From the IMG/VR virus record IMGVR_UViG_2651869696_000004: a DNA stretch of 23,729 bases. The stretch is one strand, 5' to 3'. The DNA is from a virus. Taxonomy: Duplodnaviria; Heunggongvirae; Uroviricota; Caudoviricetes. The notes under the pieces were generated by a model. That model did not search any database. It saw only the letters and a program-made list of their open reading frames with translations, and was not told the DNA's origin. Position 1 is the stretch's first letter; each line of letters begins with the position of its first letter. The position numbers were made by a program, and so were the translations under genes. Positions 107-20,773 of the stretch are shown in pieces.

Positions 107-946
107 TTGGTTGATGGTTTTGGCACAACCCCCATCTCACACTTTGGATATCGCATCGCAGACTATGATGTGACGACACTTTATCCGCTTGCTTTGTTCA
201 TTTCGATAGCTAACATCGCTGATGATGAGAAAGCAGCCATGTATAATGATCTTGTCTCCTACGTAGTACGAAGAGCCGTATGTGGCCTGACGCCAAAGAA
301 TTACAACAATGTATTTATGAATGTATTGCGGCACTTGGCTAAAACGGAAATTTCCAGTGTTGAGTTACGTAATATCCTCAATAACTTAAATGGCGAAGCC
401 TCACGTTGGCCTGGTGACTCAGAATTTCTCAACGCTTGCATCAATGCTCCACTTTATCCTGGCAGGCTCGACGCACCGAAAATGCGCTCAATGTTAACGG
501 AACTTGAAAGAGAACTTTGTCGCCAAGTGAAGACCGAAAAGCCTGATGTTCCAAATCTTTCTAATCTCGATATCGATCATCTTATGCCCCAAAGTTGGTA
601 TTCCTGTTGGCCTCTCGAAAATGGTCGTATGGTGACAAATTCAGATGCTACGGTATTGAACCAAATTGTTCTGTCTGGAACCGATCTTACCCCTGAACAG
701 CTACTGGTAAGGAAACGGCAACAAGCGATAGCTACTTTGGGAAATCTAACTTTGCTTAACCTTAGCGTAAACCGTTCTGTTCAGAATGCTGTATTTCTGA
801 AAAAACGTGATGCTCTCATCGTCCACACCAATCTACGACTGAACATTCCACTTATAGTTAAGGATAAATGGGATGAGGATGAAATCCTGGAGCGGGGTAA
901 AAATTTGGGGGAAATTGCATTGAAAGTATGGCCAAAACACGATTAA
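107..946 (+). CDS. DUF1524/GmrD-like His-Me finger (HNH-type) nuclease domain protein; start codon uncertain (TTG at 107 or ATG at 239)
   Basis: Motifs DIDHLMPQS and GNLTLLNLSVNRSVQNAVFLKKRD match the DUF1524 signature found at the C-terminus of GmrSD-type enzymes; in-frame stop at 8-10 excludes a longer N-terminus in this frame; appears lower in GC than the phage genes by eye. Confidence 0.7.
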   Translation: MVDGFGTTPISHFGYRIADYDVTTLYPLALFISIANIADDEKAAMYNDLVSYVVRRAVCGLTPKNYNNVFMNVLRHLAKTEISSVELRNILNNLNGEASRWPGDSEFLNACINAPLYPGRLDAPKMRSMLTELERELCRQVKTEKPDVPNLSNLDIDHLMPQSWYSCWPLENGRMVTNSDATVLNQIVLSGTDLTPEQLLVRKRQQAIATLGNLTLLNLSVNRSVQNAVFLKKRDALIVHTNLRLNIPLIVKDKWDEDEILERGKNLGEIALKVWPKHD

Positions 947-967
947 TGCAATTAATAAAATGATTAT

Positions 968-993
968 AGCGGCCTTACCTTAGTAAGGCCGCT
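968..993 (+). terminator. Stem-loop (10-bp stem agcggcctta / taaggccgct, 6-nt loop) 22 nt after the DUF1524 gene stop; possible bidirectional terminator
   Basis: Perfect inverted repeat read directly; flanked by A/T-rich sequence on both sides but no clean U-tract on the plus strand. Confidence 0.45.
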
Positions 994-1041
994 ACTCACT
1001 ATTAAATACTTTAATTTGCATCAAGAACAGCAATGTCAGCC

Positions 1042-1170
1042 CTAGGTCTCGGACTTTGTACCGCTTATCTTGTTTTCAAAAATCAGCTCGCATCCTGCAC
1101 AGTTCAGCGCATTACGTTGTAGATCTGTGTTCTGGTCATTTGTTGATACGCGTACATAGCCAATAAGCAT
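1042..1170 (-). pseudogene. Serine DNA invertase (Gin/Pin/Hin/Cin family) N-terminal remnant, 43 codons then TAG
   Basis: Minus-strand translation from ATG at 1170 gives MLIGYVRVSTNDQNTDLQRNALNCAGCELIFENKISGTKSET*, which matches the conserved invertase N-terminus including the catalytic Ser in YVRVST; similarity ends about codon 40 and no downstream invertase sequence is present. Confidence 0.85.
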
Positions 1171-1224: not shown

Positions 1225-1250
1225 TTTTCATAAACGTTGGTTTGGGAGAA
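1225..1250. repeat. Left crossover site of invertible segment (TTTTCATAAACG-TT-GGTTTGGGAGAA)
   Basis: 26-bp site with two 12-bp half-sites around a 2-bp core; inverted relative to 3145-3170 with a 14-bp perfect match; resembles gix/hix/pix architecture. Confidence 0.7.
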
Positions 1251-1747
1251 GGCTCTGCATTACCTGCGGTGTGCCTGTTCCGTGGCCTTCCGCCACTCCG
1301 CCGACAGGCTGGCTGAAATGCAATGGTGCGGCTTTTTCTGCTGAAGAATACCCGGAACTGGCAAAGGCTTACCCGACAAATAAATTGCCTGATTTACGCG
1401 GTGAATTTATTCGTGGCTGGGATGATGGGCGTAGTGCGGATGCGGGGAGAACAATATTATCCGCTCAGGGCGATGCCATACGTAATATCTATGGTGAGTT
1501 CAAGACTGTAAACACCGAAAATTATTCAATATGGGAATCAGTAGGCTCGTTTAAGGGGGCAGTGGTGCCTTTGAACCCCTCAACGAACAATAGTTATTTC
1601 TCCTTAGTCAGAAGTATGGTGACAGAAAGGTCCGAGGGCGGTGTTTACCCAAAAGTGATTGGCCTTGATGCTTCAAGAATTGTTCCAACTGCAAACGAAA
1701 ATCGACCCCGTAACATTGCCTTTAATTATATCGTGAGGGCTGCCTGA
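1251..1747 (+). CDS. Alternative tail-fibre C-terminal cassette (Sv'-like) with tail-collar domain; no start codon of its own; out of frame with the crossover site as it stands
   Basis: PVPWPSATPPTGWLKCNGAAFSAEEYPELAKAY...LPDLRGEFIRGWDDGR is a phage tail-collar-type motif; the track ORF 1169-1747 reads through the invertase start and the crossover site, so its first 27 codons are not genuine. Confidence 0.7.
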
Positions 1748-2349
1748 TGGATAAAGCTATATTAAATAAGGAACTCATCGCCACAAAGGCGGGAGATATT
1801 ACCGTTTATAATTATGATGGTGAAACACGAGAATATATTTCCACATCAACCGAATATCTTGCTGTGGGTGTCGGTATCCCGGCATGTTCCTGTTTAGATG
1901 CTCCTGGCTCATATAAAGCTGGTTATGCAATTTGCCGTTCTGCAGATTTTAACTCATGGGAATATGTGCCAGACCATCGCGGTGAAATCGTCTATAGCAC
2001 CGAAACAGGAGAATCAAAAGAAATCACAGCTCCGGGTGATTACCCTGAAAAGACAACCACTATCGCCCCGTTAACGCCATACGATAAATGGGATGGTGAG
2101 AAATGGGTGACGGATACCGAGGCACAGCATAGAGCAGCAGTAGACATGGCAGAAACACAGCGGCAGTCGCTGATTGATGCTGCAATGGTTTCCATTAGTC
2201 TGATTCAACTGAAATTGCAGGCCGGGAGGAAGCTGACGCAGGCAGAAAACACCCGACTTAACGCCGTGCTGGATTACACTGACGCGGTGACGGCAACAGA
2301 TACCAGCACCGCGCCGGATGTCATCTGGCCTGAACTGCCGGAGGCGTAG
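1747..2349 (+). CDS. Tail fibre assembly protein (Tfa), partner of the alternative fibre cassette
   Basis: 200 aa; start overlaps the cassette stop (TGATG); C-terminus DYTDAVTATDTSTAPDVIWPELPEA is similar to the C-terminus of the convergent Tfa. Confidence 0.8.
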   Translation: MDKAILNKELIATKAGDITVYNYDGETREYISTSTEYLAVGVGIPACSCLDAPGSYKAGYAICRSADFNSWEYVPDHRGEIVYSTETGESKEITAPGDYPEKTTTIAPLTPYDKWDGEKWVTDTEAQHRAAVDMAETQRQSLIDAAMVSISLIQLKLQAGRKLTQAENTRLNAVLDYTDAVTATDTSTAPDVIWPELPEA

Positions 2350-2773
2350 GCCATTCAATATCTGGAGCACTGGAGGTATCAACCAGCTCCAGTGCGTCCA
2401 GATAATCCAGCCACAAATTATATTGCGCCAGTTCGTCACCTTTCAGACGACCAATAGCGGCTTTACCAGGCCATTGTTTACTGTTCATATAATCGTTGGC
2501 CTGATTAATTAGTAGCTGTCTTTCTGATTCAGTAATTTCAGTAAGTTCTTCATGCGTAGGGGCAGGAATATCCGCCCACGCGGGCAGCCCATCACCTCCG
2601 GCAATACGGATTTTTCCTTGTGGCGGTTCAGCCATAAATTCACTGATAATATTTTGACTCACCTCCTTAGCATCTGATAAATCCCATCCCTCTGATTTAT
2701 ATTTATCAATCATATCCACAGGGAAAAAAGCATTATGCCTTGCGCTATAAACATATTCGTTCATATAAATCAT
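2321..2773 (-). CDS. Tail fibre assembly protein (Tfa) for the currently expressed fibre
   Basis: 150 aa immediately downstream of the fibre gene; conserved Tfa C-terminal region LWLDYLDALELVDTSSAPDIEWP; 3' ends of the two tfa genes overlap convergently at 2321-2349. Confidence 0.8.
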   Translation of the reverse strand: MIYMNEYVYSARHNAFFPVDMIDKYKSEGWDLSDAKEVSQNIISEFMAEPPQGKIRIAGGDGLPAWADIPAPTHEELTEITESERQLLINQANDYMNSKQWPGKAAIGRLKGDELAQYNLWLDYLDALELVDTSSAPDIEWPTPPAVQAR

Positions 2774-2784
2774 CCTGAATAAAA

Positions 2785-3447
2785 TTATTCACCAACAGCC
2801 CACCAACTGTAAGTCATTGACACCTTGTCGCTGGTTGATGCAGTTCTGTAAGCAGAATTAAAGCCGGTTAATGTTGGGCCTTCTACGGACATAACGAATC
2901 CACGCCCTGCACCAAAAGGCGCACCGCCATCGCCAGAATGGGTAAGAATGGCGATATCCGCTTTTTTAGGGAAAGGGATAGGAAATGTAATCCTCATTGT
3001 TTGCGTCGATAATTTCGGCATAGCCTCACCTCGACCATATTGCAGGATTTTCCCGTTGGGTAATTTCATCCATCCATCACCACTGGCAAAAGAGGTCATG
3101 TCCGGTATCTGATTTTCCCCTGTCCCCACCCCTCGTTTTGCTGCTTCTCCCAAACCAAGGTTTTCGAGAGCCGTTTTCACCGTGCCATCCGATTTGATAT
3201 CACCAAACGGATTCTTGCGGCTTAACAGCAGAGCACGAAGCGCGGTAAGCAACTGGTCGTTTCGCCCCTTCTCCAGGCTGGCACCGGATGCCTCCACCAC
3301 GCTGCAAAGCTCCTCCTGCAACATATCAAAGTAGTCATCATCCAGATCGGTGGCAGGTGTGCCGGTCTGGGGGTTACCACGGGTAAAACCGTTCTTACCC
3401 GCGCCGAACTTATCCTTCTGCGCGGTTTTCGTGTCTATACGATGCAT
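2785..3447 (-). CDS. Tail fibre protein (StfP-like); constant N-terminal part outside and variable C-terminal part inside the invertible segment
   Basis: 220 aa directly downstream of the gp48-like gene; crossover site 3145-3170 falls at codons 93-101 ([12 protein letters not shown]). Confidence 0.8.
3145..3170. repeat. Right crossover site of invertible segment (TTCTCCCAAACC-AA-GGTTTTCGAGAG)
   Basis: Inverted copy of the 1225-1250 site; core dinucleotides are identical when the sites are aligned in the same orientation. Confidence 0.7.
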
Positions 3448-3450
3448 GGA

Positions 3451-4035
3451 TTACTCCGGATATTTAAAAATTACGTAGGTATGCGACGGGCAGAGTTTGT
3501 TAAGCACACACTCGACAACGGTGTCGCCCCAGATACGCAGCGCGGAATCACAGGGATCGCCACATGTCATCCAGGTGGTGTTGGTGGCAGCTGGCATGTT
3601 GACCTGCCAGTAATACCGCCATTCCGGCGCATTCACCGCGTCAGTACAGGCCAATGAGCAGGTGAAGGTGCTTTTGTCGTATCGCGTGATGGTGGCAGCT
3701 GGTCTGCCCAGGGCAGCAAGCTGGGCAAGATAAAAATCCTCGTTGATGCCGCCCGCCAGGTTAACCTTCGCATCCAGCCGTTGCTGACGCTGGCGAAGGG
3801 TCTGTGTCCCTGTAGGAATACATTCATCCGGCAGGCCGCACAGACGCTCCCAGCGATTTATCAGTTCGGTGGTGGTGCGCGGATCCAGCTCCCGCATCAG
3901 GGCATCCGCACGCTGATGAACGCGGGTTAATGACGGTGCCGCACCGGCAATCGCCGGATCGCTGGCTGACCACGCCGGACCGGGCGGCAACAGTGCTGAC
4001 AACAGACGGATGTAATCATCGTTTGTCACGTCCAT
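3451..4035 (-). CDS. Mu gp48-like tail protein (DUF2313/YmfQ-like)
   Basis: 194 aa; position between baseplate J-like gene and tail fibre; N-terminus [16 protein letters not shown] typical of this family. Confidence 0.75.
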
Positions 4036-20422: not shown

Positions 20423-20773
20423 TTACTTCAGCCGTTCACGGGCCGTCTTCGCCTTATGACACAGCCAGCACAGACTCTGCAGATTACTGTCGGCATCAGA
20501 GCCGCCATGCGCTTTAGGAATGATGTGGTCAACGGTTTTCGCCTCACGCACCACACCAGCACGCAGACATAACTGACATAAACCTTTATCACGCTTCAGC
20601 ACACGCGCGCGGATAACATCCCACTTCGAACCATAGCCGCGCTGGTGACGGGATTGTCCTGGCTTGTATTGTTTCCAGCCTTCGCTTTTGTGGCTTTCGC
20701 AGTAGCCTGACGGGTCAGTCGTGGTATTGCGGCAGCCGCGAACGCGGCAGGCTTTTGGGATTCTAGGGGGCAT
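20423..20773 (-). CDS. HNH endonuclease (terminase-associated)
   Basis: 116 aa; CxxC...DHIIPKAHGG...N...LCWLCH zinc-finger HNH motif; immediately upstream of terminase genes; no obvious Shine-Dalgarno. Confidence 0.9.
   Translation of the reverse strand: MPPRIPKACRVRGCRNTTTDPSGYCESHKSEGWKQYKPGQSRHQRGYGSKWDVIRARVLKRDKGLCQLCLRAGVVREAKTVDHIIPKAHGGSDADSNLQSLCWLCHKAKTARERLK

Follow-up and report, generated by a model that had tools for sequence, protein, structure and literature searches.

A one-nucleotide deletion puts the alternative tail-fibre tip out of frame in an e14-type invertible segment of an Escherichia coli prophage

One of the two alternative tail-fibre tips carried by an e14-type invertible segment was found to be out of frame by a single nucleotide in the 23,729-bp stretch of DNA analysed here (the window), which comprises the whole of contig JHSV01000071.1 from the draft assembly GCA_001266155.1. 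The deletion responsible is a real and recent pseudogenising mutation that is private to one lineage and ordinary in kind, and it did not arise as a homopolymer error in sequencing. The account that very probably explains the locus as a whole is that the recent loss of a T killed the StfE-type tip, that the invertase gene pin had been cut earlier and that the segment flips by means of an invertase encoded elsewhere.

The window is the late region of a temperate myovirus prophage of E. coli that belongs to the SfII/SfV/e14 family. Its left 3.5 kb follow the layout seen at the right end of e14, a cryptic prophage of K-12, in the order ymfQ, a fibre gene with a gp53-like tip, tfa, a convergent tfaE, a Collar-domain tip, a fragment of pin and a DUF262/GmrSD_C gene (Table 1). 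The locus at the end of the tail-fibre gene is an e14-type invertible P segment of approximately 1.92 kb. It is bounded by two inverted 26-bp sites, each with a 2-bp core, and the right one lies inside the fibre gene at ...LENLGLGE. Within these two sites there is a 20-nt inverted repeat (1232-1251 and 3144-3163) that is 95% complementary, and the 16-mer TTGGTTTGGGAGAAGG common to both sites is the repeat published for the P segment of e14 (PMC12529663). Comparison of the window with an assembly in which the segment is inverted (IMG/VR UViG_2654587570_000002, hereafter L006) narrowed the exchange point to 1237-1251. The segment holds two opposed C-terminal cassettes, each with its own Tfa, namely Collar and Caudo_TAP on the plus strand and Gp53-like_C and Caudo_TAP on the minus strand. 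The fibre that is currently expressed has a constant N-terminal part, running from 3447 down to the crossover, and a variable gp53-like tip encoded at 2785-3144. Inversion of the segment would swap the C-terminal receptor-binding tip together with its chaperone, the alternatives being the gp53-like tip expressed in the window and the Collar-domain tip of the StfE type. The 3' ends of the convergent tfaE (plus strand) and tfa (minus strand) overlap by 29 nt at 2321-2349, and the same overlap occurs in K-12 e14. The pin-proximal leader ORF stops early in the window while its counterpart in K-12 stfE continues in frame. No sigma-70-like promoter was found in a scan of 850-1450, and expression of the leader ORF is thus without sequence support.

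Table 1. Features of the invertible tail-fibre locus and its flank, in window coordinates.
Feature	Position	Strand	Basis or remark
3' part of DUF262/GmrSD_C (type IV restriction-like) gene	107..946	+	PF07510 GmrSD_C
Perfect hairpin, 12-13 bp stem, 4-nt loop	966..995		scan: terminator-like, minus strand
pin DNA-invertase remnant, first 41 codons (MLIGYVRVSTNDQ...)	1049..1170	-	37/41 identical to residues 1-41 of the 197-aa pro483 invertase
Pin-proximal leader ORF, StfE-type start MMPFARYFCIFINVGLGE, stops after 39 codons	1197..1316	+	translation MMPFARYFCIFINVGLGEGSALPAVCLFRGLPPLRRQAG
Left crossover site, 26 bp	1225..1250		TTTTCATAAACG TT GGTTTGGGAGAA; core TT 1237-1238
1-nt deletion, T absent between g1266 and c1267	1266..1267	+	ancestral CCT GTC GGT GTG
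Alternative fibre tip, StfE type	1271..1747	+	PF07484 Collar; open, one base off the frame of the crossover site
tfaE-type tail-fibre assembly chaperone of the alternative tip, 200 aa, intact	1747..2349	+	PF02413 Caudo_TAP; length as K-12 TfaE
Chaperone of the currently expressed tip	2321..2773	-	ORF list, domain search
Currently expressed fibre gene, 220 aa	2785..3447	-	PF21882 Gp53-like_C; length as annotated relatives
Right crossover site, 26 bp	3145..3170		TTCTCCCAAACC AA GGTTTTCGAGAG; core AA 3157-3158

The fibre frame was read codon by codon across the left crossover site. It proceeds as GGT (1239) TTG GGA GAA GGC (1251) TCT GCA TTA CCT GCG GTG TGC ... GGC TGA, which past the crossover translates to GLGEGSALPAVCLFRGLPPLRRQAG and ends at the stop codon at 1314-1316. 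The Collar-domain reading (VPVPWPSATPPTGWLKCNG...) begins at 1271 and is open to 1747. It is offset by 2 mod 3 from the fibre frame, from which it follows that one base is missing. A sequence-only reading of the window had placed both the stop and the one-nucleotide offset of the Collar tip in this way, and these frames proved exact. The tip itself matches PF07484 and retains the conserved C-terminus ...RPRNIAFNYIVRAA, and it is not in frame with the linker at the crossover site, GLGEGSALPVGVPVPW, the spacer being 21 nt instead of 22 nt long. From GVPVPWPS to its end, the tip has 100% protein identity with intact proteins (P0003, P0004, P0009 and P0012), which indicates that the lesion is recent. 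The intact proteins that match the tip are widely distributed, one of them occurring on 413 contigs. The GTG at 1271 was considered as an independent start codon for the tip and rejected, as no Shine-Dalgarno-like sequence is visible upstream and a tip made in this manner would lack the constant part that binds the baseplate.

Alignment to relatives was used to identify the missing base. XH988, WP2-S18-ESBL-07, pro483, Shigella flexneri, E. coli A2, HK97 stf, a P2-like phage and K-12 e14 all have one base more than the window, and all read CCN GTY GGN GTN, that is P-V-G-V. The expectation that the silent StfE-type cassette is out of frame was thereby borne out against the intact HK97 stf, pro483, P2-like phage and K-12 stfE. 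Intact relatives with the same sequence as the window had been named as the observation that would speak against a lesion, and every intact relative was instead longer by one base. The survey was then extended by 120 loci from IMG/VR, collected with a degenerate pattern accepting either length, and the spacer between the crossover repeat and CCNGTNCCNTGGCC was tabulated for 133 junctions. The spacer is 22 nt long in 130 of these, 129 of which encode GSALPVGV and one of which (L232) encodes GSALPAGV. A 21-nt spacer is found in the remaining 3 of 133 only, namely the window, a second record of the same contig (L005) and L006. Seven loci carry CTCTGCATTACCTGTCGGTGTG, which is the window sequence with an inserted T. 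The three closest cassettes, which belong to these seven and over 1080 nt of tip and tfaE are 99.63% (L163) and 99.44% (L210 and L203) identical to the window, all have CCTGTCGGTGTG. As the closest cassettes equal the window plus a T, the lesion is the loss of the T of the GTC valine codon, between g1266 and c1267. This changes CCT GTC GGT GTG to CCTGCGGTGTG at a point 28 nt inside the crossover core, so that the window has CCTGCGG at 1263-1269 where the form with the T has CCTGTCGG.

The repair proposed in the sequence-only reading was the addition of a G to the run at 1266-1269 (gcgg to gcggg). This does restore the frame, but the nearest relatives have a T at this place and encode PVGV, not PAGV. 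A natural PAGV allele does exist in L232 (CCCGCGGGTGTG), whose 22-nt spacer flanks show 3 differences from the window and whose tfaE part is 88.6% identical. Loss of a G from an L232-like allele with GCGGG is formally possible; it was rejected as the less parsimonious route, given that the near-identical cassettes all have GTC and that L232 is clearly a different haplotype.

A missing base in a single contig may also reflect an error of sequencing or assembly, in which case the extra base would be present in the genome and the cassette intact. The window is a contig from a draft assembly, single-base indels are the classic consensus error, and the allele is known elsewhere from one closely related assembly only. 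The absent base is, however, a T flanked by G and C and lies outside any homopolymer, contrary to the homopolymer error suggested earlier. Furthermore, the window matches 22 of 22 SfII proteins at full length and without gaps at 93-100% identity, a set that begins with the YmfQ/Mup48-like baseplate protein and ends with the small terminase subunit. These late genes show no other coding indel, which indicates that the assembly is not indel-prone. The deletion is also repeated in L006, a longer contig in which the segment has the opposite orientation and which, over the ~9.4 kb compared, differs from the window by 2 SNPs, both located outside the segment at window positions 3588 and 9221. An error is therefore unlikely, even though the two deletion-bearing assemblies might come from closely related isolates or even from related data. 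Outside the variable fibre end the sole other indel relative to SfII is at window 14762, where the window has GGGG and SfII has GGGGG. This position is intergenic; the spacer concerned separates the major capsid gene (start 15995, minus strand) from the gene that follows it downstream.

The deletion allele was subsequently sought in larger collections. The 43-nt deletion junction was absent from 5,426 complete E. coli genomes and from the metagenome contigs scanned. The allele was likewise absent from the GTDB species representatives, where the flexible pattern matched one locus only, an intact one in Shigella flexneri. Judged from these collections, the deletion allele is private to one lineage. 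In the e14-like locus of E. coli A2 (L007, NZ_CP028772.1 3867637-3870410) the annotation marks frameshifts in each of pinE, the Collar tip and the gp53-like fibre, which indicates that point decay of such cassettes is common.

The invertase gene that would be expected beside the segment is not intact. Only the 41 N-terminal codons of pin are present, and this remnant is non-functional. Homology to K-12 pinE starts at window 1049, and in relatives that share the junction pin is annotated as 'missing C-terminus'. The hairpin listed in Table 1 lies just downstream of the DUF262 gene and before the end of the pin homology. The E. coli genomes WP2-S18-ESBL-07 and ES8 have a gene for a DUF262 protein of 629 aa at this location, and in ES8 it is preceded upstream by an AbiTii-domain gene and a decayed dinI-like gene. 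When window 107-1048 is compared with K-12 e14 (L012 5847-6680), a DUF262/GmrSD-type gene is found where mcrA sits in e14, and the replacement of mcrA removed the 3' three-quarters of pin as well. On sequence comparison this prophage end looks like a defence hot spot at which one type IV restriction gene has been swapped for another. The pin remnant reaches 192 bp from the crossover core and contains weak, loose Fis-like 15-mers at 1086-1100 and 1135-1149, the centres of which are 49 bp apart and ~95 and ~144 bp from the core. For comparison, the enhancer of the Hin system has its proximal Fis site ~100 bp away from hixL (PMC3798978). By analogy, the remnant may still hold the recombinational enhancer.

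The junction between DUF262 and truncated pin was found, at 99.2-99.7% identity, in complete E. coli genomes that have an in-frame cassette. As the truncation is shared by genomes with an intact cassette, it is older than the deletion. The earlier proposal that the cassette had decayed together with the invertase was accordingly supported in part only, as the two events are not of the same age. Pin-truncated genomes occur both in the window-like orientation (GPEC1405, WP2-S18-ESBL-07, MIN6 and ES7) and in the inverted orientation (SFE8, c1-17, ES8, 23CRST010 and YF-1), the latter having been found with the in-silico inverted junction as query. ES7 (L011) and ES8 (L010) are sister strains from the same frog-farm sediment source and differ by the inversion and one SNP, with ~5.1 kb of the 5.4-kb ES7 locus aligned. 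The fibre of ES8 is a 241-aa in-frame fusion. Both orientations are thus seen between the window and L006, among pin-truncated complete genomes and between ES7 and ES8. The window and L006 share the truncation as well as the deletion and differ in orientation, which means that inversion took place after both events and without a local invertase. It also means that the StfE-type cassette, taken to be unexpressed in the sequence-only reading, is not permanently so, as pin-truncated strains and the window lineage itself occur in both orientations. Most likely, a Pin-family invertase encoded elsewhere in the genome acts in trans. The invertases Gin, Cin, Pin and Hin cross-complement each other. 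PinQ of prophage Qin has been shown experimentally to invert the P segment of e14 (PMC12529663).

The consequences of the deletion depend on orientation. In the window, the gp53-like fibre is intact and the StfE-type ORF next to pin would end after its 39 codons. After a flip, the fibre gene would read 21 wrong codons and then stop, giving a 122-aa product without a tip. An inversion product of this kind had been predicted from the window, and it exists in L006, where the flipped fibre ORF is 122 aa long. Virions made in the flipped state would presumably lack functional fibres. In this lineage a host-range switch between two tips has in effect been reduced to one with a single tip and a null state.

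Beside the pin remnant, L006 has a 137-aa ORF (264-677) that consists of the leader MMPFARYFCIFINVGLGE and the gp53-like tip; its equivalent in the window is 1197-1250 followed by the reverse complement of 2785-3144. Its architecture is that of the K-12 StfE2 chimera, whereas its tip differs in sequence from that of K-12. StfE2 is reported to block adsorption of phage T2 in K-12 (Kirigo et al., PMC12529663), and StfE and StfP are reported to be ineffective in defence and sometimes deleterious (PMC12529663). As the gp53-like tip of the window differs from the StfP tip of K-12, the StfE2 phenotype cannot simply be carried over to the window.

These observations bear on whether the frameshift has been tolerated or selected, either as an on/off fibre switch or as a favoured loss of an StfE/StfP2-type product with the leader and gp53-like product kept. 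The segment does still flip, the flipped state keeps the 137-aa ORF of leader and gp53-like tip while the fibre is truncated, and defence activity has been reported for StfE2 and not for StfE and StfP, which can even be harmful (PMC12529663). The deletion was nevertheless encountered in a single lineage when more than 130 junctions and 5,426 genomes were examined, with no sign of recurrent selection, the tip is not that of K-12 StfP, and a neutral recent mutation fits the data equally well. Selection is consequently considered very unlikely. There is an even slimmer chance that a composite scheme applies, in which the deletion makes an on/off fibre switch operated by the invertase of another prophage. 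One orientation would then give complete fibres and the other would give particles without fibres, with the leader joined to the gp53-like tip made as a free protein, and a low level of -1 slippage at the heptamer T TTG GGA of the crossover site might partly rescue the fibre.

Programmed -1 ribosomal frameshifting as the sole rescue of the tip was evaluated separately. The sequence T TTG GGA (1241-1247) is a heptamer in X XXY YYZ phase, and the -1 frame, which would read ...ENLGLGRRLCITCGVPVPWPS..., is open to 1747. The heptamer is, however, part of the recombination half-site GGTTTGGGAGAA and is present in every in-frame relative, while the out-of-frame arrangement is found in the window lineage only and is not conserved. 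In addition, the RNA fold of 1248-1340 is no better than that of shuffled sequences (z = -0.73), and the conserved linker GEGSALPVG would be replaced in the product. UUUGGGA is not known as one of the efficient slippery sequences of bacteria. Programmed frameshifting was therefore rejected, there being no stimulatory structure and the heptamer being universal in the family, and it is given next to no credence here. The phase of T TTG GGA in the crossover half-site is probably incidental.

Loss of a T in a cassette that can still be flipped into use remains the preferred explanation, and its practical meaning is mainly one of annotation. The annotation of the tip at 1271-1747 should read pseudogene with a frameshift and that of the pin fragment remnant, and a single usable fibre tip, not two, is to be expected of this prophage. 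Nothing in this is new in kind: the system is well known, the inactivating mutation is an ordinary one, and the finding matters little beyond annotation. The locus does provide a natural example of the published point that a Pin-type segment can go on flipping after its own invertase has been destroyed. It also illustrates the published point that a 'silent' cassette, being under intermittent selection only, can gain a null mutation that is seen as a truncated fibre in flipped siblings.

In the G segment of Mu (Gin), the C segment of P1 (Cin) and the Hin/hix system, serine invertases act at 26-bp sites with a 2-bp core. The sites of Mu and P1 lie within the tail-fibre gene, so that the same constant N-terminal part can be followed by one or the other C-terminal tip, each with its chaperone, and in the Mu, P1 and Hin systems a Fis-bound enhancer is located in the 5' part of the invertase gene. 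The window differs from these systems in that its cis invertase is dead and one of its two tips is frameshifted, and in that its enhancer is putative, with weak Fis-like matches only.

Among phages, SfII, SfI, SfIV and SfV of Shigella and the E. coli phage vB_EcoM-689R6 are collinear with the window at 97-97.5% DNA identity, over a stretch from ~3.1 kb to 20.4 kb that extends from ymfQ to the small terminase subunit. Similarity to this group ends at the variable end of the fibre, the fibre of SfII being ~63% identical to that of the window. At the other side, similarity to SfII ends at ~20410. A 116-aa ORF at 20423-20773, just upstream of the small terminase, corresponds to a gene of vB_EcoM-689R6 whose annotation is homing endonuclease.

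The closest counterpart of the switch itself is the P segment of K-12 e14 (stfP/tfaP - tfaE/stfE - pinE), which has the same gene order as the window and the same 16-nt inverted repeat. In its constant part the fibre of the window hardly differs from K-12 StfP, and both loci have the same type of StfE leader and linker. The window differs from K-12 e14 in that its pin is reduced to 41 codons, mcrA is replaced by the DUF262/GmrSD gene, and the expressed tip is different in sequence from the StfP tip. The StfE-type cassette of the window has a 1-nt deletion where that of K-12 has none. In contrast to the heavily deleted e14, the prophage described here is a nearly complete member of the SfII/SfV family with a complete late region.
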